Virus record (IMG/VR): IMGVR_UViG_3300037193_000639
Location: 1-64,000 of that record
Direction: 5' to 3' (one strand)
DNA: 64,000 nucleotides
Origin: a virus
Part shown: piece after piece, positions 5,600-63,847 of the stretch
Layout: each line of letters starts with the position of its first letter
Numbering within the stretch: the first letter of the stretch is position 1
Translations under genes and position numbers: made by a program
Notes under the pieces: model-generated
What the model was told of the DNA's origin: nothing
Database searches by the model: none
Seen by the model: only the letters and a program-made list of their open reading frames with translations

Positions 5600-6141
5600 T
5601 GCTGCTCCTTAAATTTCTTTCTAGCTTCTTCAAACGAAATTGGCGTGTAGTTGATTTGTTCGACGCTGACACAGAGGTATCGTGGGTCGTATGTATCACC
5701 ATACTCCCTGTGCCAATCAATGTATTCTACCCTACTACTATGCAAATGCCCGTGAATATTTCCACCACACCATCTAGCCAAGCTTTTAGGGTGAATTGGA
5801 ATATGCGTCAAGATATAGTTATCAAGCTTATGGCTTCCACGGACATCTTTGAAATACGGTGTGTACTCCTCAAGCCGGAAGATATCGTGGTTCCCACGAA
5901 TGAGAACTTTTTCACCGTTCAGCCTGCCACAAATTTGCAGAGCTTTCCGATTAATCACAACATCCCCGAGATGATACACCTTATCCTTTGGCCCTACCAC
6001 TTTGTTCCAGTTTGCTACAAGAGCCTCATCCATCTCTTCCACATTACCCCAAGGACGGAGTTTTGAGCCGTCATTGTTGAGGAATTGTGTGACGCCTTTG
6101 TGTCCGAAATGTGTATCGGAAATCAGGAAAACGTTCGACAT
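5596..6141 (-). CDS. calcineurin-like metallophosphoesterase
   Basis: SDTHFGH, HLGD, GNHD, THIP, HGHLH. Confidence 0.9.
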   Translation of the reverse strand: MSNVFLISDTHFGHKGVTQFLNNDGSKLRPWGNVEEMDEALVANWNKVVGPKDKVYHLGDVVINRKALQICGRLNGEKVLIRGNHDIFRLEEYTPYFKDVRGSHKLDNYILTHIPIHPKSLARWCGGNIHGHLHSSRVEYIDWHREYGDTYDPRYLCVSVEQINYTPISFEEARKKFKEQQ

Positions 6142-6377
6142 TAGTGAATCTTTCTAGAGTTTTGTTTACAAACGAACCTAATCATCTTCCAAGCAAGGAA
6201 GAAAAGCAACACGAAAATATTTATGATCGGTATGATCGCATAGAAGCATACTAGATAAAAATCTTTCCAATAGTGTACCTCCACAAACTCACTCATGCGC
6301 TTGCTGTAGATTGCAGAGATTGCCAAACCAATTAAAATGCAACCCGAAATGAAAGAGATGCCTAAAAGTAATTCCAT
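6141..6377 (-). CDS. small membrane protein
   Basis: Two hydrophobic segments. Confidence 0.55.
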   Translation of the reverse strand: MELLLGISFISGCILIGLAISAIYSKRMSEFVEVHYWKDFYLVCFYAIIPIINIFVLLFFLAWKMIRFVCKQNSRKIH

Positions 6378-6387
6378 ATCTAACTCA

Positions 6388-6585
6388 TTAACTTACTACT
6401 TGACGTTTTACCTCATATCCACCGATACCTACCACGGATACTACAGTATCAAGCATTTCGATAGTAGCTGCGTCTTTGACGGCAGTAATGTTGGCGTTGT
6501 AGTCCTTTGCAGCAGCTACAGCCAAGCTCATCATAGAGCCGTCATGGCCGTTCACGAAACCTACATAGTTTTTCATTTGTTGCAT
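6388..6585 (-). CDS. hypothetical protein
   Basis: AGGAG SD; operon context. Confidence 0.55.
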   Translation of the reverse strand: MQQMKNYVGFVNGHDGSMMSLAVAAAKDYNANITAVKDAATIEMLDTVVSVVGIGGYEVKRQVVS

Positions 6586-6697
6586 TTGTTTCTCCTAGAG
6601 AATGGATTGTTTAATACTTCTCATTAGTGAGAAGTTTACTGCTTTAAGTTGATACCAGAATTCTATAGCAAGCATTTGCACATTGCAAGTAATTTCT

Positions 6698-6738
6698 GTA
6701 AAAGAAAAGCCCTGTCGCATCTCTGCAAACAGGGCTTG
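6698..6738 (-). terminator. rho-independent terminator
   Basis: AAGCCCTGT...ACAGGGCTT stem with an A-run on the left, downstream of the ClpP-like gene. Confidence 0.65.
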
Positions 6739-6749
6739 TAAGGCATACT

Positions 6750-7421
6750 TTACACAATTGCTTGAACTTCTACTGCCGTAGCTTTCTTAACGCGAGGTTT
6801 ACGAACAGGCTTCATTGCAGCCTCTTCTTTAGCTTTGAAGTATTCGTTGCGTTTGTTGTAGCGATCCAAGAATTGAGCCGGGTCAAGCCACAAATCAACA
6901 CCTTTAAGCAAGTCTTCCATTTCAGCATCAGTTAGGAATCCGGTGTAAGTGTTTCGCAACACTTTTTCCATATGCTTCAAAGTATACGCGGATTCAGCTT
7001 TGAAATCAGAGTATTTCCCGCCAGAACCGCACCCACCGTTGTGGATCAGGAAGTTTGAGTTTTCAGAAAGTACAAACTCATCGGCATTTAGCAAAATGAT
7101 TGTTCCAGCAGAGTGCACACCGCCTGAAGCCTTTACAATTACCCGCCCGTCACATTGGTGCATTGCTTGCAGGAGCGTGTCTGTTGCATCAATAGATCCG
7201 CCATTGGTTTGTAGGTTGATGACGACAACATCGTTCTCTGTTGCTGCTGAGAGCACTTCCACAGCCCCCACAAATTGTTGAGGTGATTCAATAGTACCAT
7301 ACAGATAAATATTGTAGATACCTGCACGGACTGGGGAATAGGTGATAGGGAACTCATCAAACTCTGTGAATGGGTATCCTGCTCGTTTTGTGTTCAGTGT
7401 ATTTAGTTTTACTTCATTCAT
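6750..7421 (-). CDS. ClpP-like protease
   Basis: IYLYGTI, LQTNGGS, VHSAGTII (Ser), FLIHN (His), GVDLWL. Confidence 0.8.
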   Translation of the reverse strand: MNEVKLNTLNTKRAGYPFTEFDEFPITYSPVRAGIYNIYLYGTIESPQQFVGAVEVLSAATENDVVVINLQTNGGSIDATDTLLQAMHQCDGRVIVKASGGVHSAGTIILLNADEFVLSENSNFLIHNGGCGSGGKYSDFKAESAYTLKHMEKVLRNTYTGFLTDAEMEDLLKGVDLWLDPAQFLDRYNKRNEYFKAKEEAAMKPVRKPRVKKATAVEVQAIV

Positions 7422-7430
7422 ATGATCTCC

Positions 7431-8159
7431 TCATTTACCATGTTTGGCAGAGTACTCTTCACCCTGTTCATTGAGTTTTTGAATCATCTTTTCTCGATAC
7501 GCACATGCCATTGCGAAAGCTGGAAGTAACCCAAACCTTGTTACCGAGAAACATTTCGTGCACTGCCTTTGCTCTATTCCTTCTTGCCATCGCGCCACGG
7601 CATACAAGGTCTTACCAGACTTGGTGGTGCTCCACACCACGCCCGTAAATCCGCTGGAGTTGGTGACTTTCTTTCCTTTGTTATGGGCCTGTTTGTGGTA
7701 TGTCTCCCATCTTATATTTCCTTTTACATACCCTACATCGTTATCTATTCGTCCTACGCTATAACGTTTTCCGTCTGCAGGTTTCGGGCCGAGGTGTTCA
7801 TAAAAAGCATCCATACTCTCCACAAATTCTTGATCGATTGTCAACCCTCTTCCTCCATACTCAGGATAAAGCTTGCAAGTTGGATCAAGGATTCTCCGTT
7901 TGATGAGGTTCCACACTGAGTAATCTTTTGTGTTAGCATAGCCGTGTTTTAAACTTTGTTTTCCTGCGACATCTCTTGCATAGCAGCCACAAGATTTTGT
8001 TTGCCCACTCGTGATAGCATACGCCTCTCGCTCAATGGTGTTCCCACACTCACATTGAAACAGCCACAACAAGCTGTTTTTGTAATTTTTGTTTCCAGTT
8101 TTATGGAGGGCAGTAAGTCTGTTAAACTTTTGTCCAGCGATTTCAACTATCTTGCTCAT
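7431..8159 (-). CDS. free-standing HNH/AP2-type homing endonuclease
   Basis: GQKFNRLT, CECG, SCGC, YGGRG, RIDNDVGY..GNIRW, NSSGFTGV. Confidence 0.85.
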   Translation of the reverse strand: MSKIVEIAGQKFNRLTALHKTGNKNYKNSLLWLFQCECGNTIEREAYAITSGQTKSCGCYARDVAGKQSLKHGYANTKDYSVWNLIKRRILDPTCKLYPEYGGRGLTIDQEFVESMDAFYEHLGPKPADGKRYSVGRIDNDVGYVKGNIRWETYHKQAHNKGKKVTNSSGFTGVVWSTTKSGKTLYAVARWQEGIEQRQCTKCFSVTRFGLLPAFAMACAYREKMIQKLNEQGEEYSAKHGK

Positions 8160-8935
8160 GCGTTATCAAAAACCTTAATCCAAAACTTTGTAAGACCAGA
8201 CCGAACACAGTCATCGTTTGTGAAGACAACTGTGCCGATGTTTGTAAAAGCTTGATTCATATCTTCCGTGTCAAGGTAGTTTGGGCGTGAACGTTTAACA
8301 TCATCTAGTAGGCTGTACATCCACTTCAAACCACTCTCCCCTTTCAAGTCAACCTGCTTCCAATCTCCACAAAAAATGAGTTGAGAATCTTCTTCAGCAC
8401 GGGTAAGTAGTGCTTTCATGCTTGATACGTCTAGGTTCTGGCTTTCGTCAACAATTACAACGGATCGTTTATAGGAGCGTCCACGACAATCTTCTGCGCT
8501 CTCTAGAATGAGTTTTTCATTCTCAAGCATATAATTAATCTCGCCGCGCCCTAGTACAAGTGTTAGGTCATCCAACATAGTTTGCATCAAAGGCTTCAAC
8601 TTTTCGAACTGAGAACCTTTTTTAAAACCCACAGTTTTCCCAAGAGGTTCCGCAGGCCGGATTAGAACAATCTGGTCAACATTTCCCTTCAGATATTCGT
8701 TTGCGGCATGTGTACATGCAAGGTACGTCTTTCCTACCCCTGCAGCGCCCCCTAGTACAACCATTTGCTTTGTTCTAAGGTGGTCTAAGGCTAAGGATTG
8801 GTTTTGATTCTTTGCTTCAATGTGGAGTGCTTTCCTCACTCGGGATTCTTGGAATTTTATTGGTTTTACAGGAGCATCAGCAACCTCTTTTATAATTTTG
8901 CGCTGATTACGAGCGGCATTCTTACTCATTGTCAC
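8156..8935 (-). CDS. phoH: PhoH-family ATPase
   Basis: GAAGVGKT, RGRS, IVDESQN, LTR, GDWKQVD. Confidence 0.92.
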   Translation of the reverse strand: MTMSKNAARNQRKIIKEVADAPVKPIKFQESRVRKALHIEAKNQNQSLALDHLRTKQMVVLGGAAGVGKTYLACTHAANEYLKGNVDQIVLIRPAEPLGKTVGFKKGSQFEKLKPLMQTMLDDLTLVLGRGEINYMLENEKLILESAEDCRGRSYKRSVVIVDESQNLDVSSMKALLTRAEEDSQLIFCGDWKQVDLKGESGLKWMYSLLDDVKRSRPNYLDTEDMNQAFTNIGTVVFTNDDCVRSGLTKFWIKVFDNA

Positions 8936-9155
8936 CTCTTTCTTATTTATTACTTAAACAACGTCCTTTTGCAGCAGTGCTGCCGTCTTCCTTTTTTCTT
9001 CTAGACGCTTCCTCCCCCACGATGCTAAAATCATTTGTTCAAAAGATGCCTTATCGGGAATATCCCCTGTCCAGAAACATTCTAGGCAGGCTTCCAAGTA
9101 AGCAACACGAGCTTCAGCTTCAAGCACTCGTGTCTTTAATTCTGCAACATGAGAC

Positions 9156-9413
9156 TTAGACATTTTCTTGTTCAGCCTTTTGACGAGCCTTTTCTGCCCT
9201 TGCTTTACGTGCAATTGCCATAATCTCTGAGCGAGTAAGCTTTGGAGTTTCATTCTCATCTACTTCACGGACAAGATGACACTCATACTGGAAGCCAGCA
9301 ACAGGCATTCGTTCTTCGTCAAACTCCCAACCAACTGAAAGGGCTTCTGCCAACTCAAGGTTGTATACGATGAAAGACGGGGTGACGATCCATTTATACT
9401 GTTTCATATTCAA
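9156..9413 (-). CDS. hypothetical protein
   Basis: ORF with a basic C-terminus in the operon. Confidence 0.5.
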   Translation of the reverse strand: MNMKQYKWIVTPSFIVYNLELAEALSVGWEFDEERMPVAGFQYECHLVREVDENETPKLTRSEIMAIARKARAEKARQKAEQENV

Positions 9414-9812
9414 GCTCCTCTGTATGCTCGGGGTTAAAATATAGGGAATAGTGCGGGTCTTTGGCAGCTTCTTCTGATTCCAGCTCTAGAAGCCATTTAT
9501 CAAGGTCGAATTTTTCGCTCACAATTTTGTACCTCCTTGGATTACTCCGAGAAGAGGTTCAAGGAAGCGTTCTCCCTCTTTGTGCATGAATTCTAGAACG
9601 CTTTGTCGTGCTTCTTTGAAATCGTTGGCACCAGCTACAGCAATGCTTCGAAGTTTTCTGTTGGTGTCTCGGTAGTAGAAATTTACGTTCATTTAGTATC
9701 CCCTAGCTTACGTACAACGTTTCCGCTGATGGCATAAGAAGACCCCAGAAAACTGACGACAGTCTTATTTGTGATCAGTCCAATCATGATAATAAAGTAA
9801 TATTTTATCCAT

Positions 9813-10097
9813 CTAGTCATTGACAAAACCCTCTTCCCAATAAAATCCAAGATAGTATTGAAGTACAGTTTTAAACGCAGCAATGTAACGCAGATTTGCC
9901 TCCAAATCTTCTTGTTGATGCTCTTTGAGATGTTTCTTCTTAGATAAGTTTTCGGTTTCTTTTCGCAAAGTCTTGTAATGATATATCAGGGACTCCCGCG
10001 CAATATCATCTAGCACGTCTGCAGGTAGTGTAACGGGCATAATTTCCTCAGGTTGTTTGTGTATATGCAGTTTGATGTATGGAAAACTGTCTGTCAA
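9813..10097 (-). CDS. hypothetical protein
   Basis: ORF in the operon. Confidence 0.5.
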   Translation of the reverse strand: MTDSFPYIKLHIHKQPEEIMPVTLPADVLDDIARESLIYHYKTLRKETENLSKKKHLKEHQQEDLEANLRYIAAFKTVLQYYLGFYWEEGFVND

Positions 10098-10300
10098 GGA
10101 ATTTTTGAAATTTCACACTTCTCATTGTTGAGAAGTTTTCGTACTTGCTTCAGGAGAGCTTTTGCTTTGTTGATTTTCTGCAATGTTTCTGAATCGTTCC
10201 TTGCTGAGTATCTTTTTACTATTTGGGAAATCCTTTGTCGGCTGATTGTTTGAAAGCGCTCTGCAATTTCTTCTATAGTCATTTCGTGAATTCGTTTCAT
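10094..10300 (-). CDS. small HTH protein, sigma70 region-4-like
   Basis: MTIEEIAERF..ISRQRISQI resembles TLEEIG..F.VSRERIRQI; GGAGG SD; first gene behind a consensus promoter. Confidence 0.7.
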   Translation of the reverse strand: MKRIHEMTIEEIAERFQTISRQRISQIVKRYSARNDSETLQKINKAKALLKQVRKLLNNEKCEISKIP

Positions 10301-10320
10301 TTATTTCCTCCATACTTATA

Positions 10321-10412
10321 AGTATAAGCCACTTGTTGCATTTTGTCAAGACTTGACATTTTCATTTGGATGTGGAAATAAATATTGACAAATGACAAAG
10401 TTGGTATATACT
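10321..10412. promoter_or_regulatory. divergent sigma70 promoters
   Basis: Minus: TTGACA(10349-10344)-17-TATACT. Plus: TTGACA(10385-10390)-16-TATACT. Palindrome TGTCAAG-A-CTTGACA at 10344-10358. Confidence 0.75.
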
Positions 10413-10447
10413 GTAAATATGAAGAGCAAATTTCGAAAAGGAACTAA

Positions 10448-10819
10448 ATGAGTAATCTTGTCGTAGTTACACAAGAGGAAAATCCAAGTTTCCTGAAAGA
10501 CAAGATACAACTCCAGAAACTCCTGAAAGATCTTAACAAGGCCAGCAAGGAAGCGCTTGAGATTCTTGTTAATATCATGGAAACAACAAAGGATGAGAAG
10601 CTGAAGGCGCAATGTGCTAAAGACATTCTTCAGTTTACAATTGCAACGAACAAAGAAGTGAATGCCGATCAGATGCAACGTCTGATTGCTGAAATCAAGC
10701 TCAATCGAGCACCACAAGGTAAGCTAATCCCTTTGAATGACCCTGAAGATGTTTCCAGTGGGAAGGGGGTTGGGGATAGGCCGGTGGTCGATTTCTCAAC
10801 CGTGAGAAGTCTTGAATAA
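10448..10819 (+). CDS. hypothetical protein, possible terminase small subunit
   Basis: First gene of the virion arm, upstream of terL; helical; called by position only. Confidence 0.45.
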   Translation: MSNLVVVTQEENPSFLKDKIQLQKLLKDLNKASKEALEILVNIMETTKDEKLKAQCAKDILQFTIATNKEVNADQMQRLIAEIKLNRAPQGKLIPLNDPEDVSSGKGVGDRPVVDFSTVRSLE

Positions 10820-10835
10820 AGTTTAATAAGGTTAT

Positions 10836-10919
10836 GGTGATGTAGCCCGTCATGGGGTAGCTACGGTAGGTTAATCCTGCTCGCCGTGAGGCGTTCTGGT
10901 TCGAGTCCAGAGATCACCA
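10836..10919 (+). tRNA. atypical or degenerate tRNA-Leu(TAA)-like gene
   Basis: GGTGAT/ATCACC acceptor, TCTGG-TTCGAGT-CCAGA T arm, CGCC-GTGA-GGCG variable arm, loop GT-TAA-TC. D arm is abnormal and no CCA is encoded. Confidence 0.5.
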
Positions 10920-10926
10920 AATTTAT

Positions 10927-11016
10927 AGAGGATTGGCTGAGTGGCTGATAGCAGCGGATTGCTAATCCGCAGGGTCTGTAAAGGCTCCATAGGTTCGAAT
11001 CCTATATCCTCTGCCA
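10927..11016 (+). tRNA. tRNA-Ser(GCT)
   Basis: AGAGGAT/ATCCTCT acceptor, GCGGA-TTGCTAA-TCCGC anticodon arm, long variable arm, ATAGG-TTCGAAT-CCTAT, G-CCA end. Confidence 0.95.
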
Positions 11017-11018
11017 AG

Positions 11019-11157
11019 ACACTTGATGGTAGACTTAGGGCCATAAGGAATACAGTGGAAGGTTGTTTGGTGATGCGGGTTCGAGCCCCGTCTTAGAGCA
11101 GGATAGCCACCATAGATACTAGTTACTAGAAGCTGTATTTGCTGCCATCAAATGTGT
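11019..11157 (+). ncRNA. putative structured ncRNA with internal T-arm
   Basis: Closing stems TTGATGGTAG/CTGCCATCAA and AATACAGT/GCTGTATT; GCGGG-TTCGAGC-CCCGT; lies between two tRNAs. Confidence 0.6.
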
Positions 11158-11172
11158 TGGTTTAATTTATGT

Positions 11173-11270
11173 GGAAGCGCCATCCGATTGGCGACGGAGC
11201 CGGTCTTGAAAACCGTGTGAGTTATGCTAACGCATAGCCTTGGGAGTTCGACTCTACCCCGCTTCCTCCA
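11173..11270 (+). tRNA. tRNA-Ser(TGA), atypical
   Basis: GGAAGCG/CGCTTCC acceptor, CGGT-CTTGAAA-ACCG, long variable arm, bulged T stem, T-CCA end. Confidence 0.85.
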
Positions 11271-11347
11271 AAGATTTTGTGGAGAGGACTTCCGGTTTGG
11301 GAGGTCAAAGTGCATTTGCAAGGTAGCGTGGCAGTGTACAAGCATTT

Positions 11348-11382
11348 AGAACCCTTCTTGGTGAGAGCCTTGAAGGGTTTTT
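11348..11382 (+). terminator. terminator-like hairpin after tRNA cluster
   Basis: GAACCCTTC...GAAGGGTTT followed by Ts. Confidence 0.55.
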
Positions 11383-11394
11383 GTGTTGGAGTGG

Positions 11395-11487
11395 TTTTAA
11401 AGAGGCGTCCTTGGTAGGCATCAACCCTCCAAAATACTGAGGCCGACCTCTTTAAAATTATTTCAACAACAACCTTGGAGGGTTGAT
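11395..11487 (+). promoter_or_regulatory. RBS-sequestering RNA pseudoknot
   Basis: Stems TTTTAAAGAGG/CCTCTTTAAAA and CCTTGGTA/TACTGAGG. Loop ATCAACCCTCCAA is the exact complement of TTGGAGGGTTGAT (the SD). Confidence 0.65.
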
Positions 11488-11523
11488 ATTATGCAACAAC
11501 TGAATCTGTTTTAGAGGCAAAAA

Positions 11524-12096
11524 GTGTGTGATGTTGGTATAAGTCCGGTTAGGCACAAAATTTATGAGGACGGGAAGAGAACACGAGGCTACTCTGTGTG
11601 GCACAGTATGTTAAATAGGGCCTATAACTTGAAACGGACTGCGGGTAAGAAGGCTTATGAAGGCGTCGCCGTTTGCGATGAGTGGTTGTCAGGGGATGTG
11701 TTTATTGATTGGTGTGAGAAACAAGTTGGATTTTCTGACCCATTGTTTCAACTTGACAAAGATATCTTAGTGAAATGGAATAAGATTTACTCACCAAAGA
11801 CATGCGTGTTTGTACCTCGTGAGATTAACTTAGCAATTACTAGAAGTGACTCTAGCAGGGGTGAATTTCCTATAGGTGTTTCTTGGAGTCATAAATCGGA
11901 AAAGTTTGGGGCCTATTTAAGTGAGTTTGGTAAACTTAGATACCTCGGAATGTTTCCAACACCAGAGGAAGCTTTCTACACATATAAGTCAGCTAAAGAG
12001 AAGTATTTAAAAGTTCTTGCTGACAAATATAAAGATGTCATAGACCGCAGATGTTATGAAGCTCTTTGTGCGTATCAGGTGGAGATAACGGATTAA
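11524..12096 (+). CDS. free-standing HNH(DKD-type)/AP2 homing endonuclease
   Basis: YSVWHSMLNR, VCDEW, LDKDIL...YSPKTCVFVPREIN, PIGVS, YLGMF.TPEEAF. The in-frame ATG at 11491 is separated from it by TAG 11512. Confidence 0.8.
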   Translation: MCDVGISPVRHKIYEDGKRTRGYSVWHSMLNRAYNLKRTAGKKAYEGVAVCDEWLSGDVFIDWCEKQVGFSDPLFQLDKDILVKWNKIYSPKTCVFVPREINLAITRSDSSRGEFPIGVSWSHKSEKFGAYLSEFGKLRYLGMFPTPEEAFYTYKSAKEKYLKVLADKYKDVIDRRCYEALCAYQVEITD

Positions 12097-12098
12097 AT

Positions 12099-13842
12099 AT
12101 GAGCAAACGAATTTACGGCCCCTGTAGTGAACGTCAACGTCTATTTCTAATGGACACAACAACAGACGTAATTTTGCTTGGTGGTAAACAATCTGCCTCC
12201 AAGGGTAAAAAACAACTCTCTAATTGCTGGAAAATCTCGATGAGACAATCAGCAGCGAAGGTTCTCAATGATGAGAACAACGTTCAACGACTAGCCGAAA
12301 GGCGTACACCTAAGCGGGTGGAAACGGGAGTCTCCTTGACAGGATGAAGATATAGTCTGAACTGCATGGCGACATGCAGCAGCTTTGCAAAAGCGGGGTA
12401 GTAGTAGCGATACTACCTGAACATATTTGGGCGCTGGAGGAGGCAAATCATTCACCTGTCTTACAAAAAACCTAGACGGCTTAGACGATCCATATTTCCG
12501 CTGCACTATCTTTCGTCGCACATACCCAGAGCTTAAACGTCAGGGTGGTTTGATTGACGAAAGCAAGCAAGTATACAGAGATTTTGGTGGTGTCTACAAA
12601 TCACAGGCAATGAAGTGGATTTTCCCAAGTGGCGCAGAAGTTTCGTTTTCTGCTATCTCTTGTGACGATGATCTAGGCTCTTGGCAAGGCTCACAGTTGG
12701 TTCGTGCACTAGTGGACGAAGCTGCAGATAAGTGGACAGAGAAGCAGGTTTTGTTTCTGTTGTCTCGTTTGCGGTCAGCACATTCTAAAATTCATCCTCA
12801 ACTAATTTTGACATGTAACCCAGACATTAATTCGTTCTTGAAGTCTTGGGTGGATTTCTGTTTAGATCCAGACACAGGGGTTCCTGTCGAGGGGACAGAA
12901 AATCGGGTTAGGTGGTTCATTGTTATTGACAATAAGGCACACTGGGCTGATTCCCCTGAAGAGGTGTTTGAGAAGTATGGTAAGCCGCGCAACATGATTT
13001 ATGCACACGGGCTTACTGAGGAAGAAATGAATAGTTACTCTCCTCAAGAACGCCTCCGCTTGTGCATGCCTAAGTCTTTCCGGTTTCTGCCTACCGGAGT
13101 GTTTGACAATCCTTACCTGCTCCCGCCAAGGAACAATAGCTATCTGCCAAACTTGCTGGCACAGCCGTATGTCAACCAGCTTAAGTACCTCCATGGATCA
13201 TGGACGGCTAAGGAAGCTGCAGGAGGCTACTTCAAACGTGAATGGACTCCTATCGTAGATTATCCTCCTGAGAATCCTATCTCCCGTGTTCGCTCTTGGG
13301 ACTTTGCAGCCTCTGAAGAAAGCGTTGCCAATCCCAACCCTGACTGGACTGCAGGGGTGAAGATGTCACGGGATAAGTATGGAATCTATTACATTGAACA
13401 CGTCGAACGCTTCCGTGCAAGAACTGACAAGGTATTGAAAGAGGTTATTGACGTAGCTAAGTCGGATGGTTTGGACGAATGTGGTGTGACCATCCCTAAA
13501 GACCCCGGTGCAGCAGGAGCTACAGCAAATGCCTTCTATATTAGGACGCTTGCAGAAGCAGGGGTAGCAGCTAAATCATGTACGATTTCTGGGCACAGTG
13601 GCAAGGTAACACGTTTCAAGCCATTTGCTGCATTAGCAGAGAGCGGTTCTGTTAGGGTGGTTAGAGGTGATTGGAATGATGCTTTCTTTAATGAGCTAGA
13701 AGAATTCGATGGCTCAAGGGGTAAGAAGGACGACCAGGTGGATGCTGTGTCGGATGCTTTTGCTACTTTGGCAAGACAGTTGCAGATGCCGACGATTGTG
13801 ATCCCTTCTCTGGAACAACCCTCCCCAATTCCAACAGTTTAA
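12099..13842 (+). CDS. terL: terminase large subunit, join(12099..12185,12430..13842), ~499 aa
   Basis: Splicing rebuilds Walker A LLGG|GAGGGKS; Walker B LVDEA, LTCNP, WDFA, KDDQVDA nuclease motif. Confidence 0.93.
12186..12429 (+). mobile_element. ORF-less group I intron (IA2-like), 244 nt
   Basis: P1 CTTGGTGGT/GCCTCCAAG with U.G at the splice site; P AATTGCTGGAAA, Q AATCAGCAGC, R GTTCAACGACTAG, S AAGATATAGTCT; P7.1/P7.2 and P9 hairpins; ends in G; removal restores the frame. Confidence 0.93.
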
Positions 13843-13845
13843 AAA

Positions 13846-13905
13846 TTGTCAAGACTTGACATTTTGAAATAACCTATTGACAAATTACCTTCAGGAATGT
13901 ATAAT
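13846..13905 (+). promoter_or_regulatory. consensus sigma70 promoter preceded by TGTCAAGACTTGACA palindrome
   Basis: TTGACA(13877)-17-TATAAT(13900); near-copy of the 10343-10393 cassette. Confidence 0.8.
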
Positions 13906-13933
13906 AGTATTAAACATAAGGAGTAAATTCAAT

Positions 13934-15442: not shown

Positions 15443-15457
15443 ATAAGGAGGCTGAAC

Positions 15458-16890: not shown

Positions 16891-16927
16891 GTAGCGCACA
16901 TTCAATTAATATTTTAAAGGAAATCAA

Positions 16928-17629: not shown

Positions 17630-17647
17630 TTTTAAAGGAAACAAATA

Positions 17648-18679: not shown

Positions 18680-18771
18680 TTAGAAATTTTGTCAGATAAT
18701 TACTGACCAATTTCTTGATCAAAAGCAACTGTCTATGTTATAATGCGCAGTTGCTTTGAATGAGGGAATTG

Positions 18772-22253: not shown

Positions 22254-22268
22254 TGAGAATCATTCTCA
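22254..22268. promoter_or_regulatory. Fur-box-like 7-1-7 palindrome
   Basis: TGAGAATCATTCTCA, intergenic. Confidence 0.4.
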
Positions 22269-22281
22269 TCTATAGTTGATT

Positions 22282-22320: not shown

Positions 22321-23265
22321 ATGGCAAGAAAACGAACCAAAGAAGATTTTTTGATTGAAGCAAGAGAAATTCATGGCGATAAGTATAATTACGACAACGT
22401 GGATTTCACATTTAGTAATACAAAAGTAGAGATAGTTTGTAACAAGGGGCATGGCAGTTTCTGGCAAACCCCATCGAATCATATAATTTGTAAGGCTGGT
22501 TGTCCCGCTTGTGGAGGCTGTGAACGTCCAACAACTGAAAAATTTATCCGGCAAGCCAAAGAAAAGCATGGTGATAAATACGACTACAGCAAATCAGTGT
22601 ACGTTAAGGCGCACCAAAAATTGCTAGTGACTTGTCCAAAAGAAGGACATGGAGATTGGGAAGTAACCCCAGACGCGCACAAGCGCGGAAATGGTTGCCC
22701 GAAATGTGGCGATGAAAGAACTGCGGCATCCCACAGATTAACACAGGAAGAGTTCATTCAAAAAGCTACAGATGTCCATGGCACAAAGTATGACTACAGT
22801 AAAGTAGAATACAAGTGCGACACAGTGAAAGTTTTAATTGGATGCCCAGAACACGGGGACTTTCCATGTACTCCATCTAACCATAAGAAAGGTCGGGGTT
22901 GCCCTAAGTGTGCCAAGAACGGATACAAACGAAGCCAACCCGGAACCTTCTACATCTTAACCTGTGGCAATCTCACAAAGATTGGTATCACAAACCGTAA
23001 AGTACAAGACCGCATTAGGTCTATCAACAAAAGCTCTGGCAAGAAATTTAAAGAGCGTTTTAGCATCTTTCTAACAGACGGCGAAGTTCCATACCAAATG
23101 GAGCAAATTCTTCTACAAGAACTTCGAAGCAAGTACAAACCTGTTGATGAAATATTCGATGGCTCAACTGAATGTTTTCAGGATGTTGATAACGCCTTAC
23201 TTATCGTCAAAGCTGTAACACTCTTCGGAGATCAAAAACTTCTCAGTAATGAGAACAAGCCGTAA
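22321..23265 (+). CDS. homing endonuclease, paralogue of 18772..19728
   Basis: Three HG.KY.Y...C...HG.F..TP..H...GCP.C repeats; FYIL..KIGITN; FDGSTECF. Confidence 0.8.
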   Translation: MARKRTKEDFLIEAREIHGDKYNYDNVDFTFSNTKVEIVCNKGHGSFWQTPSNHIICKAGCPACGGCERPTTEKFIRQAKEKHGDKYDYSKSVYVKAHQKLLVTCPKEGHGDWEVTPDAHKRGNGCPKCGDERTAASHRLTQEEFIQKATDVHGTKYDYSKVEYKCDTVKVLIGCPEHGDFPCTPSNHKKGRGCPKCAKNGYKRSQPGTFYILTCGNLTKIGITNRKVQDRIRSINKSSGKKFKERFSIFLTDGEVPYQMEQILLQELRSKYKPVDEIFDGSTECFQDVDNALLIVKAVTLFGDQKLLSNENKP

Positions 23266-40645: not shown

Positions 40646-40679
40646 TAAACCCTTTCTTGTAATTATAGCCTACCAATTC

Positions 40680-41165
40680 TCAAGAATGAGAATTGCCATT
40701 ACCACGAATCATATCATGCACTGCCTGCAACTGCATAATCTGCTGCACAGTCCATTCATAATCTTCTTCAACAGGTTCTTCGTTATTTTCGTCCTCTACA
40801 ACACCCTCAGCCTCCAGCAAGGCTTTGTAGTTGATTGTATTGCCCATCATGCTTGCAAGCTCTCTTGTGAGAGATGGATCTGTGTATGCTGCTGCACACA
40901 TTCGATCAGTAATGTCTGACACGCAGGAGTTAAGGAGCTTCCTGCTTGTACATACGCTGCCGATAGCCTGAAACCCAATTGCAACCTTACCTTGCATGTC
41001 CCTATGTTTTGATGGGACATACTCGATTTCTTTAGCAGGGTCAAATCCGCATTGCCACAACACTTCATGCATCAGTGCGTCATTTTCGGGAAACAGCATC
41101 TCCACTTCATTCAGATGTTTTAGCTCATCCGCAAGCTTTAGATCACGGAAGGAGATAACCTTCAT
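40680..41165 (-). CDS. hypothetical protein
   Basis: GGAGG SD; operon context. Confidence 0.6.
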   Translation of the reverse strand: MKVISFRDLKLADELKHLNEVEMLFPENDALMHEVLWQCGFDPAKEIEYVPSKHRDMQGKVAIGFQAIGSVCTSRKLLNSCVSDITDRMCAAAYTDPSLTRELASMMGNTINYKALLEAEGVVEDENNEEPVEEDYEWTVQQIMQLQAVHDMIRGNGNSHS

Positions 41166-41467
41166 TCGAAGCCTCCTTTGGCTTTCTTGTTTAATTGATT
41201 CACCACTTCCTTCATCTCCTCCAACCGCACCTCATAGCACACTGGATTACTGCAAATAGGGAAGGATGTCTTATACCGAGTTGCAGGTTCTCCGCATACA
41301 AGGCACTGGTCCTCTTCATTTTCTTCAATCATTTGTAGATTTGCTTCAGTAATGCTTTTAACAATTGCCAACATGTCTTCCTCAGAAGTTGCTATATATC
41401 GGACAGACTTCCCTTTGACAGTGCCTGATACGATATAGCCGTTCAATACTTTCTCTATGTTTATCAA
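41162..41467 (-). CDS. hypothetical protein with CxxC...CxxxxC
   Basis: IEKVLNGYIV; CLVC, CSNPVC. Confidence 0.55.
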   Translation of the reverse strand: MINIEKVLNGYIVSGTVKGKSVRYIATSEEDMLAIVKSITEANLQMIEENEEDQCLVCGEPATRYKTSFPICSNPVCYEVRLEEMKEVVNQLNKKAKGGFE

Positions 41468-48878: not shown

Positions 48879-48948
48879 TTCTTTTCCTTTTAAACAAATA
48901 AATTGTGCATTACATGCACGTTAAACTTCTCATTGCTGAGAATTACTG

Positions 48949-49092
48949 TTAGCCTTTATTGGCCTTATCTTTTGCTGTCTTTCCGGGACGTGCTTTCCCA
49001 GTCAGTTTAATACAATTCTGGTGTGTGCGAGGGAATTTACCCATCGCTTTCTTATCTGCTTCAGTCATGTAATCTGCACGTTGTTTGCTCAT
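48949..49092 (-). CDS. small basic protein (47 aa, not in ORF track)
   Basis: AAGGAG SD; MSKQRADYMTEADKK...KANKG; flanked on both sides by TTCTCA-N4-TGAGAA. Confidence 0.55.
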   Translation of the reverse strand: MSKQRADYMTEADKKAMGKFPRTHQNCIKLTGKARPGKTAKDKANKG

Positions 49093-50191
49093 CTTTTCTC
49101 CTTATTTGTTCTCATGGTTGAGAATTGTTTTAATCACTTCCCAAGAACACCAAACCTTCGTCTGGGTATTCTGTGTGATATGCATACAACCCCTCTGGTC
49201 CTTGCAGGTTAGGGTAGTTTTCACTTCTTACGAGCACGTAAGTATGTTCTTCTGGATTGTCTTCGCACTCAAAGCATTCTACAAGCTTTTTAGCTTGCTT
49301 AAATGTAATTACCATTTTACTCCTTTTAGTGGCACATGTCAACAACTTTGTTGCTAATCATCCACACGAACATAGCGGGTGCTCATTGTCTCAAAGTAGC
49401 CACCCTCTCCTACATACATGATACGCGAAACCAAGGCAGGCTCTCCATTAACAACCAATGAGGATGTATGATCAATAGGAACAACATACGTCCGTTGACC
49501 TACTACCAAATTTGTTACATAGTCAATGTGCTTGTATTGCACGATAGGTTTGTATTTGACTTCTTCAGTCATTGCACGGCTCCACATTCAGGGCACTTCC
49601 AAGCCCCGTTTTCGTAATCTTCGTCTCCGAACTGACCAGCTTCAAGTCCGTACTCTTCGCAATCTTCAGGGTCAAACCCCGGAATATCGTCGTCCGATTG
49701 TTCAAACCAAAACGTCATTGTAATAATCCTCCATCATCACTGCCAACAAATCACCTTCAATCTTCCTGTACTGGCTCTCAGACAGCTTATTCAACACACT
49801 TACACCTCCATGTGTAATATCGAGGATATCAACCTCTGGAGGTTCTGTAGGACTGTCCCAAACCATATAGCAGCGCCCCGGCCAGAAGAAAAAGAAAGCT
49901 TCAGCTTCTACAGCTTCATCTGTCTCAGGATGATTAATCGTTATCGGGAAGTTGTTGTGACGACTCATCTACAGATCACCGTAATCGTCACAGAACCACC
50001 AACCCTCATCCCAATCTTCGTTTTCTTGTGTGCCGACTGGGGAAGGGTTCTCGTCTTGAGAATAGCCCATCATTGCAGCTAGTTCACCTTCTGCCATTGC
50101 TTTGGATCTATTCACTTCTTTCCAAAACTTTTCTACAACTTTCTTATAGACTTCGTAGAGAATCGTCAATTGTGTTGGAAGCCATTGCATA

Positions 50192-55522: not shown

Positions 55523-55534
55523 CCCATCTCCTAA

Positions 55535-56257: not shown

Positions 56258-56571
56258 GTTTGTTCTTAAGGTTGAGAACTTGTGCTGATGATTCCACTCG
56301 ATTGCTCCTTGAACTCCCGAATTTCTTTTTGGTATCGAATGTACTCCGCTGCTTCTTGCTCTGTCCGAAAAGCCTTGATTGGTGTTACAACATTCCGTGT
56401 GAATGTGTAGCCAGTGGCAGACACATCCGACATTTCTCCTGCATACCACACCTCAAATTTGTTCCAAATCTTTGTTGGGTTGTTGATTACAGCATAAGAG
56501 TCTTTATTCAATTGTTCTCTCCCTTGGTTGATCAATGCCTACATTTTAGTGCAGGTATTTCGGTGTGTCAA

Positions 56572-60847: not shown

Positions 60848-61755
60848 GATATTCTCCTCAAAACCAGTACGGGCAATATTTACCTGTTTTATTATCTTTC
60901 AACTCACACACTTTACCACAAGTAAATAGAGCTGCCAACCAAGCTGTAAATTTGAACCTGTAGTGTCTTGGATTCCCGTGCAAACCGGGAAACGAGTACA
61001 ATGTGTAACGCTTTGTCATATTCAGCACCTCAAAACTCAAAAAACATATCGCTACTCATTTTCTCAAGACGTTTAAGTTTAGCTTTCAATTGGCTACACT
61101 CGTCTTCAAGAGACTCATAGTCAGAGTATAGCACGTAATCTCCATAGTTGCTCGGCATCATTCCAGCAGTTTGTGAGTCAGTATTTTCACAACGAAATAA
61201 CTCAGGATCATATCTTTGTACCATCTTTACTCCTCCTCCACCCACATATCTTCCACAACAAATTTAAGACTAAGCCCTCCATCTTCACGGCTTGCCCAGA
61301 AGCCTCCAGAGGCTGCGTAGGAGTTTCCATTGAAGCACTCTTCAAGCAGCTTTCGTGCATGCTTCCTCATTTGTCCCACAGAAGGTATCTCGTAGACATT
61401 TCCTTTGTTATACCACTTCCAGTTCAGGGTGTTCATTACTCGCTGCACTTTGTAGAAGTCAAACTCATCTAGGATCTCTTCGATTTGTTCTTCTTTAGCC
61501 ATTCCAATACACCTTCGAAAGAATCTGCTTATCCAGCACTTGATGATGGCGAAGCTCCCACAACAGCTCGTTAATATCTGCCAACCAAGTCCAGTCTTGC
61601 ATATTCTTGGCAATCATCCTATCCATCTCAACGTTAGTAATGAGTGTGGAGCGTCTTGAGATGCGTGATTGAAGCCTACTTTGAATGCTTTTCATGTTAG
61701 TTTCCTTCCTACTGCATAGCAGCTATATTAATAAAATCGTCTTGCTGAATATCAA

Positions 61756-62406
61756 CTATCCATGTACAGGAAAAGCTTGATTTACTTGTTCTGCTATCAG
61801 TAATGCAAGTTGCACATGTTCGAGTTGTGTAACACCTTCCTCAGTTCGGACTTCAAAATAATGAATCCAACTACGAAGAGTCCCATTCACGTACAGGCGA
61901 CTCATCGTAAGACCTTCTGGCAAGACTACGCGAGCAACTTCTTTGGCGATGCCCTTCTTAAGAGACTCTTTGTACACCTCCTTTGCGCGTTGCAGAACAA
62001 GTTTTTGCTGATCTTCCCACCACAACTTCAGCTCCATGTCGTCTGTTTCTAGGCTGTTTTGGCGGTTTTTTATATCCTGCATGCGCAAATCACGAAGACA
62101 GAACGCTTGCTCAAGTTGAGACACGTCTGCATAACGTTGGCTAAACTCTTGAAAAGAAAAGCTTCTATGTCGCAAAAGCTGTCGTGCAATATCTCGCGGA
62201 GATTCCACTTCAACAACAGCATTTGCCATTTCAAACGGACTCCAATGCTTGTGTTTTTTCAGATACCCTAGTAACTTTTCTGCAGTGTCCATGTTATGTT
62301 GATTTGATGGATTGGATACCCGTGCGCAATACGCAATAAGCTCCCCAACATCTTCAACACCATCTATAACAGGTTGTGTGACTGCGATCAATTTTGCTTT
62401 AAACAT
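61756..62406 (-). CDS. thyX: flavin-dependent thymidylate synthase
   Basis: ARVS, HWSPFE, QLLRHRSFSFQEFSQRY, EVAR.VLP. Confidence 0.95.
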   Translation of the reverse strand: MFKAKLIAVTQPVIDGVEDVGELIAYCARVSNPSNQHNMDTAEKLLGYLKKHKHWSPFEMANAVVEVESPRDIARQLLRHRSFSFQEFSQRYADVSQLEQAFCLRDLRMQDIKNRQNSLETDDMELKLWWEDQQKLVLQRAKEVYKESLKKGIAKEVARVVLPEGLTMSRLYVNGTLRSWIHYFEVRTEEGVTQLEHVQLALLIAEQVNQAFPVHG

Positions 62407-62845
62407 TTAGAACGACCTCTTCATAGTATTTCATCTCTGCAGATTTTCTAGCACAGCATGCTTCAAAGAAATCACGAAATCTCCCAAGAGTGATTTGACT
62501 TCCTTTGACACGTATGTACGCCTTCCAAGAACTTGTTTGCTTTTCTTTGTAAACACCTGTTATACCTGACTTATTATCTCTACTAACACGTTGATTGAAA
62601 GATTGAATGGATTTTATTTCCCACTTACAATTTTCTTTACTATAACCCTTATTGTTATCTTTGCGCTCTAAGGATAAATCTTCGGACGGGCGTTCTCCCA
62701 TGTCTTCTAGGAAGAAGTTAAAACTTGTTAACCATCTATCACAAACGACTATTCCGCGCCCTCCATATCTTTCGTACTCTGGAGGCTCGGGATTCAAACA
62801 TCGTTGTTTCATATTGATCCAAGCATTATACTCTGGAGTTGCCAC
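62399..62845 (-). CDS. HNH/AP2 homing endonuclease
   Basis: W..MKQRC, YGGRGI, ERKDN.KGY..ENCKW, SGITGV. Confidence 0.85.
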   Translation of the reverse strand: MATPEYNAWINMKQRCLNPEPPEYERYGGRGIVVCDRWLTSFNFFLEDMGERPSEDLSLERKDNNKGYSKENCKWEIKSIQSFNQRVSRDNKSGITGVYKEKQTSSWKAYIRVKGSQITLGRFRDFFEACCARKSAEMKYYEEVVLNV

Positions 62846-63430
62846 ACTTACCTTCTACTGTAATCACTCCTCACCTCCAAACCGTTTATGCACTTTAATC
62901 TTGAACTCTTTCTGTTTCCCTTCCATCTTTTGCGCATAGTACGTGCATATTAGAGCCAACAATGGTACAGAAACAGGAGATGTCAGAAGCACCAATACCC
63001 CCACAGCAACATAAATGATTGCCCACAGGAATTCCTTGCCGTGTTCGTACAGCTCGCTCCAAAGATAGCAGTCACGCAGGTTCTTTAAAAGAAATATTTC
63101 AGTAGCGACCTCTTTTAAGTGTTTTATGTACAGATTCACTCTGCCACCTCTACAATCTCATAAATACCATCACCGCCAAAAGACGAAGCAGCAAAGTTCC
63201 GTTCACCAACATCATCTAGGAAATACTCTTCTCCGTCTTCATCAAGCCCCTCGATCACGTAAATCTTGCCGAGGGTTACATCTTCAAGTTGGAAGCGCTC
63301 CTTAGCACCTGTAAATCGTATTTTTGTGTCAATGTTCAGTGTCTCAATTCCCTCGATACTCATCTTGTCTCTCCTTGGTAAGCTGTACAGGTTAATTGGT
63401 GGCAGCTCTAGTGTGGGCCAATCGATCACT

Positions 63431-63847
63431 TTACGACCTCTCATAGCAAAACATGTGCTCCTCCAACCGCATGCAACTCATTTTCTTTGCCCACTTTGGC
63501 TTCACAATGACATGGTGGAACCATTTTACATTCTCATTCATGAGAACTACTCCAACACCCTCCATCCGCTTCAATAAATCTTTCATTTCGACATTATATT
63601 TCAAAATTGGCTTCTTGTCAAACCATGAAAACTGCCCCGGCTGTGCAATTACTTGACAGACACTCTTCCCTGTTGCTTTTACGCGATTCAATATGACATC
63701 CATCACAGCCCTCTTGCCTACGTCGCTTTGTGTGTTGGCTTCGTAGTAAATTGCAGACACCATGCAACGTTTTTCTGACAGAGCATCCTTTGCAACAGCT
63801 TGAAAGGGAATAATGGAGAGGGCTAGGATGAGAAGACGCTTTAACAT
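63431..63847 (-). CDS. cell-wall hydrolase (SleB/Hydrolase_2-like)
   Basis: Signal peptide, C...AIYYEA, V.LNRV, VC.VI.QP.QFSW, H.F. Confidence 0.85.
   Translation of the reverse strand: MLKRLLILALSIIPFQAVAKDALSEKRCMVSAIYYEANTQSDVGKRAVMDVILNRVKATGKSVCQVIAQPGQFSWFDKKPILKYNVEMKDLLKRMEGVGVVLMNENVKWFHHVIVKPKWAKKMSCMRLEEHMFCYERS

Follow-up and report, generated by a model that had tools for sequence, protein, structure and literature searches.

Cluster A stoperators are reportedly many short intergenic sites within operons, read by one phage protein (L5 gp71) that has been proposed to stop elongating RNA polymerase. They are 13-bp asymmetric sequences oriented with transcription, and are the sites of temperate immunity repressors. 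The KorB-OB network of RK2 and the CIRs of the phiC31 repressor each use one protein and about 12-18 dispersed palindromic operators for global control, with some operators at promoters and others far away. The Cluster O (Corndog) mycobacteriophages carry more than 30 copies of a 17-bp repeat, 5'-TGTTCGG-NNN-CCGAACA, for which a dimeric DNA-binding protein was predicted as the binder; that study identified no binder and assigned no function (PMC4351075, where Brown et al. 1997 is cited for stoperators). The SAS of Cluster K are asymmetric and tightly tied to translation starts (PMC3203893).

The stretch analysed here, the first 64,000 nucleotides of a 75,556-bp viral contig (the window), carries many copies of the interrupted palindrome TTCTCA-N4-TGAGAA. 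Like the Cluster O repeats, this is a dispersed short palindrome with invariant arms, a variable centre and fixed spacing, present far above chance in an apparently non-temperate siphovirus, with many copies in the short gaps between genes, some inside genes and a higher density in the non-structural arm. The two differ in sequence, geometry (6-4-6 here versus 7-3-7), host phylum, phage lineage and copy number (5-12 per genome here versus more than 30); furthermore, a co-occurring candidate protein family can be named here, and the pairing of motif and protein extends across phage groups that are unrelated. As with stoperators, copies occupy short gaps inside operons (37 of 76 copies in seven related genomes lie at co-directional gene junctions), but the present site is a perfect palindrome without orientation, showing only a weak spacer sense bias in two genomes, and the candidate protein, of about 290 residues, is unrelated to L5 gp71 as far as tested and has no Pfam HTH match. 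Neither an integrase nor a CI-type repressor was found among the contig genes examined, and the only recombinase seen on the contig is a serine resolvase that does not track the motif. The likeness to KorB-OB and the CIRs would lie in a set of palindromic operators scattered over a mobile genome; their sequences are unrelated to the present motif, and searches of the candidate protein found neither the ParB/KorB N-terminal domain nor a recognisable HTH. The motif shares with SAS its position just upstream of many start codons, but it is palindromic and coupled more tightly to the upstream stop codon, the start lying from 3 to more than 100 nt away. Our best reading is a DNA operator network of a dimeric protein, probably of one kind with the Cluster O repeats and stoperators.

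Copy number and anatomy of the palindrome

The window contains nine perfect copies, starting at 6618, 10119, 10793, 12262, 23240, 40677, 48927, 49109 and 63531, and two copies with one mismatch, at 5891 (TTCCCA...) and 56263 (TTCTTA...). The chance level was determined with 100 dinucleotide-preserving shuffles, which gave a mean of 0.00 perfect copies and of 0.53 copies with at most one mismatch (largest value 3). The shuffled counts are therefore not similar to the real ones, and the copy positions and non-randomness put forward in an earlier note on this DNA are borne out. In the whole contig no other palindrome with 6-bp arms occurs more than twice. A search of its final 11.5 kb gave no additional perfect copy and one further one-mismatch copy, at contig position 70453, outside the window.

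The arms are fixed and the spacers of the nine perfect copies are all different, in agreement with the earlier note; an extension of the arms to ACTTCTCA..TGAGAAGT, also claimed there, holds on both sides at 6618 and 10119 only. Among 49 copies from four genomes, pairing of the flanks beyond the arms did not exceed the chance level (20, against 15.1 expected, p 0.07), and the next position showed none. The first four genomes have 28 perfect copies spaced at N4, against one at N3 and one at N5, and the information content is about 2 bits per position in the arms and 0.1-0.4 bits in the spacer and flanks. This anatomy, with a fixed N4, invariant arms and an uninformative spacer and flanks, fits the dimeric-protein site that had been suggested. 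The copies do not resemble intrinsic terminators, given that two of the six stem pairs are G-C and that a T run follows none of the window copies, and a terminator scan of positions 1-20000 lists none of them.

Copies at gene boundaries

The one-mismatch copy TTCCCA-CGAA-TGAGAA (5891..5906) lies within a phosphoesterase gene (5596-6141, minus strand), and the perfect copy at 6618..6633 occupies an intergenic gap, 32 nt upstream of the ATG at 6585 (minus) and about +20 to +35 downstream of a promoter-like TTGCAA-17-TAGAAT (6660-6688, minus). The copy at 10119..10134 is placed at the 3' end of the first leftward early gene (10094-10300, minus), which encodes a 68-aa HTH protein behind TTGACA-17-TATACT (10321-10349); 21 nt after the copy there is a conserved promoter-like TTGACA-17-CAAACT (10069-10097, minus). 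G001, G006 and G007 have a matching copy in the same position, with G007 using another reading frame. The first early gene read rightward (10448-10819, plus) holds the copy at 10793..10808 in its final codons, where G006 has the same DFSTVRS peptide without the motif and G007 has the motif 3 nt past the stop codon. Judging from these sequences, namely the frame change in G007 and the motif-free peptide in G006, selection on the 10119 and 10793 copies evidently acts at the nucleotide level.

The copy at 12262..12277 is a hairpin within an Rfam-matched group I intron (12135-12379, plus) that interrupts the large-terminase gene, and the introns of G007 and G013 have the same palindrome arms with a different loop. 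The next perfect copy (23240..23255) falls within the final 26 nt of a gene for an HNH endonuclease (22321-23265, plus), 79 nt from the following gene; in G001 and G007 the equivalent junction, which follows the major tail protein gene, also has a copy. Directly after that gene the window has an everted copy, TGAGAA-TCA-TTCTCA (22254..22268), followed by an intrinsic terminator (22285-22302) and a T run, and at this junction G001 and G007 have the canonical motif.

On the right side of the window, the copy at 40677..40692 provides with its TGA the stop codon of gene 40680-41165 (minus) and lies 31 nt upstream of the ATG at 40645 of the RNR small-subunit gene (39665-40645), with a TATAAT 9 nt further on. 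The copy at 48927..48942 is 6 nt past the stop of a small gene (48949-49092, minus), and a further hairpin (48905-48919) separates it from the start of gene 47817-48878. This junction is kept in G001 and G007, and motif-less relatives retain other hairpins, with compensatory changes, upstream of the same gene. The copy at 49109..49124 is located 16 nt upstream of the ATG at 49092 (minus) and abuts its ribosome-binding site, and the one-mismatch copy TTCTTA-AGGT-TGAGAA (56263..56278, read on the plus strand) is 5 nt upstream of the ATG at 56257 (gene 55535-56257, minus). The last copy (63531..63546) lies inside a cell-wall hydrolase gene (63431-63847, minus), about 47 nt downstream of a perfect promoter-like TTGACA-17-TATAAT (63593-63621, minus). 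With respect to the neighbours named earlier, the intron hairpin, the homing endonuclease gene end and the nrdB gene were recovered, whereas the supposed tRNA cluster beyond 10793 is a single tRNA-Ser 118 nt downstream, and the 'ssb' label of 47817-48878 was not confirmed, this gene matching a PHROG of unknown function.

In the seven related genomes the upstream stop codon lies within -13 to +9 nt of the motif in 24 of the 37 junction copies, either adjoining it or being formed by the TGA of the motif. The following start codon is often 3-50 nt on, and in 14 of the 37 it is 3-26 nt away. At some copies (56263 and G006 11886) the right arm is the only Shine-Dalgarno-like element. Some copies are found just upstream of sigma-70-type -35 boxes, at distances of 3 to 21 nt that follow no single activator geometry, and most are not adjacent to a predicted promoter. 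Two copies, at G001 1886 and contig 70453, are upstream of both promoters of a divergent pair and apparently untranscribed. Copies occur in the early, the middle and the late regions and on both arms, with 2 of 11 in the 25-kb structural block and a high density among small early and middle genes. The siting at gene junctions on both arms that had been described thus holds for most copies, and since the motif is non-random, conserved and mainly junctional on both arms, a phage-wide site network is a fair description of it.

Distribution of the motif and of an orphan protein

The same motif was found in seven related IMG/VR phages with GC contents of 38-58% and mostly less than 70% DNA identity, at 5-10 perfect copies per genome and in total 50 perfect and 26 one-mismatch copies. 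These relatives align to the window in patches, at about 70% identity, and several motif-bearing junctions are conserved between genomes, so that the conservation asked of relatives is present. A search of 28 other relatives (about 1.9 Mb), of which 13 are at least 90% complete, gave zero perfect copies.

Just outside the window, on the minus strand, the contig encodes an orphan protein of about 290 residues (67001-67909; L195:3001-3909) that is present in all six complete motif-bearing relatives and in none of the 28 motif-less ones. Seven further genomes were picked by this protein alone and all of them bear the motif, with 2-12 core copies, as predicted; nine complete motif-less relatives have one core copy altogether. 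Overall, the motif core is present in 13 of 13 genomes having the protein and in 0 of 28 without it. Five of the seven protein-picked genomes are approximately 50-kb, GC-60% phages with almost nothing else in common with the window. In these phages the conserved form is TCTCAA-NN-TTGAGA, whose 2-nt spacer makes a hairpin loop impossible and indicates a symmetric duplex site instead. The motif distribution in the first panel was matched by 2 of about 142 contig gene families, and in the second panel the orphan protein was the only family still tracking it. Module phylogenies of these phages are mosaic, which implies that the co-occurrence of protein and motif is not simple clonality. On the other hand, G011, an unrelated GC-64% phage, has 21 copies of the same motif without the protein, which means that motif and protein are not always linked or that this specificity has evolved more than once, and several other contigs with 2-4 copies lack the protein in the DNA available.

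Among 5.8 billion proteins, the family of the orphan protein numbers only about 15. Comparison with Pfam, PHROG, NCBIfam and the sequences of PDB gave no match, nor was a recognisable DNA-binding domain or a ParB, nuclease or recombinase domain detected in these searches, and fold searches gave weak hits only, none of them significant. The protein is laid out as a helical domain joined by a charged, disordered linker to a small domain at the C-terminus, and its C-terminal 40 residues show a non-significant KorB-type structural echo (Z 4.1).

None of the three binders proposed in the earlier note tracks the motif. The HTH protein (10094-10300) has homologues in only four motif-bearing genomes, with G012, G013 and G015 lacking it, and motif-less G002, G003 and G010 do contain HTH-like genes; the family of the 'DsbA-like' protein (37220-37516) and the resolvase also occur in motif-less G010. 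A small 4-Cys zinc-finger protein (41162..41467, minus; conserved core CxxCG-x13-CxNxxC, about 60 aa) is present in all seven motif-bearing genomes of about 80-88 kb tested, including G038, and in 0 of 28 motif-less relatives, and was undetected in six motif-bearing genomes, the ~50-kb phages and G040. From its distribution, it is a possible accessory partner.

Possible roles of the sites

The position of the palindrome at gene boundaries and its shared distribution with the ~290-aa protein make it likely that the sites are the DNA-binding network of that protein. The fuller reading, in which the palindromes are double-stranded DNA operators of a dimeric phage protein, with the orphan as best candidate, and control the boundaries of transcription units, has in our view about an even chance of being right. 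Binding by a dimer is suggested by the symmetry of the site together with the co-occurrence. Each TTCTCA half-site would be read by one subunit of the orphan protein, the half-site centres being 10 bp apart, and the sites are squeezed into cistron boundaries in the order stop codon, motif, ribosome-binding site, some beside sigma-70-type promoters. The bound protein would then mark or control the ends of transcription units, as a roadblock, an insulator or a global regulator of early and middle genes. The missing recognisable DNA-binding domain and the 21 copies in G011 without the protein speak against such operators.

It is also possible, with a clearly lower probability, that the motif works as an RNA hairpin, UUCUCA-NNNN-UGAGAA, bound by the ~290-aa or the zinc-finger protein and acting in mRNA processing, 3'-end stability or control of next-cistron translation through the ribosome-binding site. 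A precedent is the small zinc-finger protein Com of phage Mu, which binds a hairpin in mRNA. The order of stop codon, motif and ribosome-binding site agrees with this role, as do the proximity to starts and the Shine-Dalgarno-like right arms described above, and for the many copies 3-25 nt before a start inside operons an RNA role is as natural as an operator. Every copy can form a predicted RNA hairpin (-4.7 to -8.4 kcal/mol, z about -4), in three genomes one copy serves as a working helix of the group I intron, and the motif-less relatives have compensated hairpins upstream of 47817-48878. However, covariation keeping the stem was not found among the 76 copies, the single compensated double variant against 50 canonical copies being the background rate of motif-less genomes. 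One-mismatch variants in the mRNA sense lean to G.U over A.C (12 versus 6), which is not significant (p 0.12), and 13 of 25 break the stem. The loop, usually what RNA-binding proteins read, is uninformative, with a sense bias in G013 and G015, where the spacer is mostly TAAA (9 versus 2). Foldability, the G.U lean, this bias and the variable -35 distances fit operators less well. Against an RNA role stand also the two sites upstream of both divergent promoters, the would-be loop bases conserved in TCTCAA-NN-TTGAGA and the zinc-finger protein undetected in six motif-bearing genomes. The generic RNA-hairpin version is disfavoured.

We consider it unlikely that the sites act on DNA outside transcription, being dispersed points that mark the genome or load proteins onto it for its organisation, replication, recombination or self-recognition; examples would be condensation, the loading of a primosome or a recombinase, and protection against a nuclease of the phage. 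Their spread over all regions and both arms, mostly away from predicted promoters, would suit this role, the authors of the Cluster O study, the nearest case described, inferred binding for something besides initiation control (PMC4351075), and the layout of the ~290-aa protein is ParB/KorB-like in the loosest sense only. Junction siting would then reflect only the tolerance of a 16-bp palindrome there. The scarcity of copies in the structural block argues against it, as do the tight coupling to stop codons and the recurrent siting before -35 boxes or terminator-like hairpins, which together suggest a link to gene expression, and the searches of the protein, in which ParB, nuclease and recombinase domains were not detected. 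Least probable of all is that the sites are read by a conserved factor of the host or by a different phage protein, for instance the small HTH, with the ~290-aa protein co-occurring indirectly through one mobile early-gene module: the motif copies without that protein in G011 and several contigs, and the copy kept at the HTH gene 3' end in four genomes, are consistent with it, but the motif spans phages of GC 38 to 61%, whose hosts are probably different, close relatives from the same sample series have none, the HTH is absent from three motif-bearing genomes, and the family comparisons of both panels favour the ~290-aa protein.

Returning to the operator network, dispersed short palindromes were already noted in a few phage groups such as Cluster O, without a binder or function, and the present comparison names a concrete, rare candidate binder, that is, a testable protein-site pair. 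More tentatively, the ~290-aa protein may found a new family of sequence-specific nucleic-acid-binding proteins lacking any recognisable DNA-binding fold, which forms with its TTCTCA-N4-TGAGA(A) sites a module portable between unrelated phages (GC 38-61%), rewiring control at gene boundaries across the genome that receives it, by polymerase roadblock or cistron-specific RNA control. The protein-site pair, if confirmed, would represent a new DNA- or RNA-recognition fold and a compact, transferable means for lytic phages to punctuate their operons, relevant to the timing of phage gene expression and as an orthogonal operator/regulator part.

Frequency and conservation of the palindrome

The nine perfect copies of the palindrome TTCTCA-N4-TGAGAA reported in the earlier note (starts at window 6618, 10119, 10793, 12262, 23240, 40677, 48927, 49109 and 63531) and its two one-mismatch copies (5891 and 56263) were all recovered. 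The claim that such a number greatly exceeds chance was also upheld, as dinucleotide-preserving shuffles gave expectations of 0.00 for perfect copies and 0.53 for copies with at most one mismatch, where nine perfect and two one-mismatch copies were observed. The remainder of the contig, from 64,000 to 75,556, holds one further one-mismatch copy, at 70453, and no further perfect copy. In a survey of every perfect palindrome with arms of 6 bp and a spacer of 3-6 nt, this motif was the only one with more than two copies. The spacer is indeed different in each of the nine perfect copies; the proposed extension to 8-bp arms (AC...GT), on the other hand, is complete at 6618 and 10119 only, and a stem longer than 6 bp was rejected, given that pairing of the flanks is no better than chance (49 copies, four genomes). 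Among the matches listed by an IMG/VR pattern scan with ACTTCTCA-N4-TGAGAA most were single chance ones, and motif strings searched in full-text literature returned primer noise or no match.

Thirteen relatives were gathered by means of the protein of the conserved leftward gene 47817-48878, and others by further searches; among those 13, the motif is present in the closest only. Perfect copies number 6 in G001 (81.8 kb, plus 7 one-mismatch copies), 5 in G006 (an 18.4-kb fragment, plus 4), 8 in G007 (82.0 kb, plus 7), 7 in G012 (87.5 kb, GC 58%), 10 in G013 (87.3 kb), 8 in the near-identical G014 and 5 in G015 (82.9 kb, GC 38%), and none was found in the ~1.9 Mb of a further 28 relatives, of which 13 have a completeness of 90% or more. 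Motif-bearing relatives align with the contig only in patches, at ~70% identity, and despite this several junctions keep a copy. All 4 genomes that have the small HTH gene 10094-10300 (-) keep one at its 3' end; copies are also kept where the first rightward early gene (10448-10819) ends, at the junction that precedes the 47817-48878 homologue, behind the major tail protein gene and, in the window, G007 and G013, as an intron hairpin. The copy at the HTH gene end falls in another reading frame in G007, and G006 encodes the same peptide as at window 10793 with the motif absent, which together imply selection on nucleotides. Judged from these sequence comparisons, the motif is genuine, is conserved and evolves under selection. 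G001 alone (IMGVR_UViG_3300045391_001467, L137-L141) has another dispersed palindrome, TTGCAA-N6-TTGCAA, in 5-6 copies.

DNA recognition and RNA structure

The likeliest reading, to which we give about even odds, is that the copies form a network of operator-type DNA sites. When spacings from N0 to N12 were scanned in the first four genomes, 30 perfect copies came up and 28 of these have N4; the arms are nearly invariant, with 0.1-0.4 bits carried by spacer and flanks. This fixed spacing, arm invariance and lack of information elsewhere favor recognition of duplex DNA by a symmetric protein. Compensated arm variants point the same way, since one against 50 canonical copies in 515 kb of motif-bearing genomes equals the background rate. 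Likewise, two syntenic copies, G001 1886 and contig 70453, occupy the gap that separates divergent promoters, upstream of each of them, where by position the DNA should be outside transcripts. Furthermore, the ~50-kb phages found through the p291 protein (see below) conserve TCTCAA-NN-TTGAGA, which counts for a DNA site because a 2-nt spacer is impossible as a hairpin loop.

The main rival is a role of the motif at the RNA level, which we regard as rather improbable when set against the invariant arms and the scarcity of compensated variants. Compatible with such a role are the intracistronic placement of copies, the stability of the predicted hairpins (-4.7 to -8.4 kcal/mol), the location of one copy within a ribozyme helix, and the retention, at one junction in common, of different hairpins in motif-less relatives, where the stems show compensatory changes. 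One-mismatch variants show a G.U excess (12 vs 6) that is non-significant (p 0.12), and the spacer in G013 and G015 is TAAA nearly always in the local transcription sense (9 vs 2), a bias that also speaks for RNA. The flanks of the copies in these two genomes (L308-L317) are alike too (..ataaTTCTCATAAATGAGAAattct..), and with the TAAA spacer this suggests either that a slightly longer unit was copied recently or that a strand-specific constraint is at work. Overall, we give recognition of the motif as DNA about twice the weight of its recognition as RNA.

The group I intron in the large-terminase gene (window 12135-12379 (+); L181 15939-16149 (-)) is shared with G007 at 82% identity and is also present in G013; it is absent from the five motif-less relatives searched, its homologues occurring in motif-bearing genomes only. 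A neighbouring intron hairpin carries a compensatory GCC/GGC swap, and the arms of the motif hairpin are unchanged. Two successive hairpins, with compensatory changes in their stems, precede gene 47817-48878 in every relative (window 48879-48945; loci L005-L017, ~140 nt upstream of each match), and the second of them (window 48905-48919; in relatives aaagccTGTGTGggctttCACACA then aatttaatt) resembles a conserved RNA element in the 5' UTR of this gene.

Genome layout and placement of the copies

Genes run leftward from 1 to 10300, rightward from 11500 to 37100 and leftward again from 37200 to ~70200. The rightward block harbors the large-terminase gene with its intron, portal, capsid, major tail protein, HNH endonuclease and a 1691-aa tape measure protein, and the leftward block from 37200 encodes ribonucleotide reductase, DNA polymerase, primase/helicase, exonuclease and DNA methyltransferase. 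Strong promoter-like sites of the TTGACA-17-TATAAT type, together with ribosome-binding sites of the form AGGAG, indicate that the host uses promoters of the sigma-70 type. The relatives suggest hosts among the Gram-negative bacteria of fresh water, and the cultured phages nearest by capsid (40-43% identity) infect Limnohabitans, Curvibacter and Pseudomonas. The RNA ligase, phosphoesterase and PhoH-like protein of the left arm (window 4295-5599 (-), 5596-6141 (-), 8156-8935 (-)) look like an RNA-repair gene set, which may be related to tRNA-targeting host defences; an RtcB-type RNA ligase is common to G012 and the unrelated phage G011.

Placement was assessed for 76 copies (50 perfect, 26 one-mismatch) pooled from seven related genomes. 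Co-directional gene junctions account for 37 of them, junctions of divergent or convergent genes for 16 and gene interiors for 23. Copies at the co-directional junctions are strikingly tied to the upstream stop codon: the TGA or TAA of the motif itself serves as this stop in nine cases, and ~14 further copies begin 0-3 nt past the upstream stop. The next start lies 3-26 nt away in 14 junction copies, the gap being made up of the motif and the ribosome-binding site and nothing else. Copies at window 10119 and 10793, G001 17563 and 79314, and G007 17240, 36461 and 41863 are found 3-21 nt upstream of a -35 hexamer, those at window 6618 and 63531 are 20-55 nt downstream of a promoter, and those at G001 27444, G012 48118 and window 48927 directly precede a terminator-like hairpin. 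A promoter element was rejected on the grounds that the 3-21-nt gaps to -35 boxes follow no fixed geometry, that some copies lie downstream of promoters and that many have no promoter nearby. An intrinsic terminator was discarded because the motif lacks a U tract.

Everted arms, TGAGAA-TCA-TTCTCA, are present at window 22254, where the major tail protein gene has just ended, and behind them comes a clear intrinsic terminator (AGGGTGTAC/GTACACCCT and a run of T; within window 22254-22302). The HNH endonuclease gene (22321-23265) is inserted between this everted copy and the canonical copy at 23240, and behind their major tail protein genes G001 and G007 carry the canonical form. The HTH gene is directly followed by a promoter-like sequence, TTGACA-17-CAAA(A/C)T, whose -10 is poor (window 10069-10097 (-)); it is kept in G001, G006 and G007 and may be a factor-dependent middle promoter.

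Candidate binding proteins and comparison with known systems

The HTH protein proposed in the earlier note as a binder (68 aa) is the product of the first leftward early gene, which has a motif copy in its 3' end and initially matched the motif in 4/4 of the first motif-bearing genomes. Its AF2 model consists of the HTH and a long helix; Foldseek against the PDB gave nothing significant, and a profile search of metagenome contigs gave no match. This candidate did not hold, as G012, G013 and G015 have the motif without an HTH homologue and a profile search finds HTH-like genes in motif-less G002, G003 and G010. G015 lacks the gene, yet has a motif copy where its 3' end would be. The other two proposed binders, 37220-37516 and the resolvase, differ from the motif in distribution, as do the TerS-like gene 10448-10819 and other clade genes.

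Profile searches with all candidate families left only two that fully match the motif across 6 complete motif-bearing and 28 motif-less relatives: a ~60-aa, four-cysteine zinc-finger protein (41162-41467 (-); alignment A4), with a perfect distribution in the first panel, and p291 (alignment A5), an orphan protein of ~290 aa encoded at contig 67001-67909 (-) (L195:3001-3909). By portal and capsid identity the motif-less genomes are interleaved with the motif-bearing ones, and module similarities are mosaic, which argues against simple clonal inheritance of the match. As a prediction test, IMG/VR was searched with the p291 profile alone, yielding seven new genomes, five of which are ~50-kb, GC-60% phages with almost nothing else in common with the window. 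The core TCTCA-N4-TGAGA is present in 7/7, with 12 copies in G038, 4 in G039, 2 in G040, 4 in G041, 4 in G042, 5 in G043 and 4 in G044, against 1 copy in total across nine complete motif-less relatives. Among these seven genomes the zinc-finger protein was found in G038 only and was not detected in G039-G044, which weakens it as a universal binder. The motif is thus present in 13/13 genomes with p291 and 0/28 without, a tally that leaves out the homologues P0003, P0004 and P0014 (88-94-kb contigs), and this tracking makes p291 the best candidate for the protein that binds the motif.

The p291 family is rare, with 15 members, all unnamed, in a collection of 5.8 billion proteins, and has no match in Pfam, PHROGs or NCBIfam or in a profile search of the PDB. 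Structural searches gave a best E of 0.7 (Foldseek) and a best Z of 5.6, within noise for helical proteins (VIA-align wide), and the ESM Atlas returned unnamed viral clusters only. In the AF2 model, residues 56-185 form a helical domain predicted with confidence, which contains an invariant AGY...DYKT-x-RR motif; a linker that is charged and disordered leads from it to a small alpha/beta domain at the C terminus.

The palindrome also occurs apart from p291. G011 (IMGVR_UViG_3300037071_003200, L323-L328), an unrelated 100.9-kb, GC-64% phage in which profile searches found neither p291 nor the zinc-finger protein, has 21 perfect copies with the consensus gCTTCTCA-ATAT-TGAGAAGc, 14 of them in its last 12 kb (88.8-100.2 kb), each preceding by ~10-20 nt the ribosome-binding site that serves a small gene. 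About 10 other contigs have 2-4 copies; therefore the motif specificity arose more than once or other regulators share it. Two pairs of copies on a GC-52% contig (IMGVR_UViG_3300020042_006239, L031 180-226 and 3819-3858) are 24-31 bp apart, as is typical when repressor operators stand in tandem.

Among described systems, the nearest is a 17-bp 7-3-7 palindrome found in Cluster O mycobacteriophages, phages not obviously temperate. It occurs >30 times, at many sites between genes, and its arms are invariant around a centre that varies; the authors predict a dimeric DNA-binding protein and a role other than initiation (PMC4351075). Cluster A stoperators resemble the motif in their intergenic, intra-operon placement, but each has an asymmetric sequence that faces along transcription, and they belong to an immunity repressor, so the motif does not group with them; a 'stoperator'-like system was one of the readings offered in the earlier note. 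KorB-OB of RK2 and the CIRs of the phiC31 repressor are functional analogies to the motif network. Dispersed palindromes of this kind are thus already known and still unexplained; what is new here is an orphan family, p291, travelling with the sites across otherwise unrelated phages and found through a comparative prediction that held.
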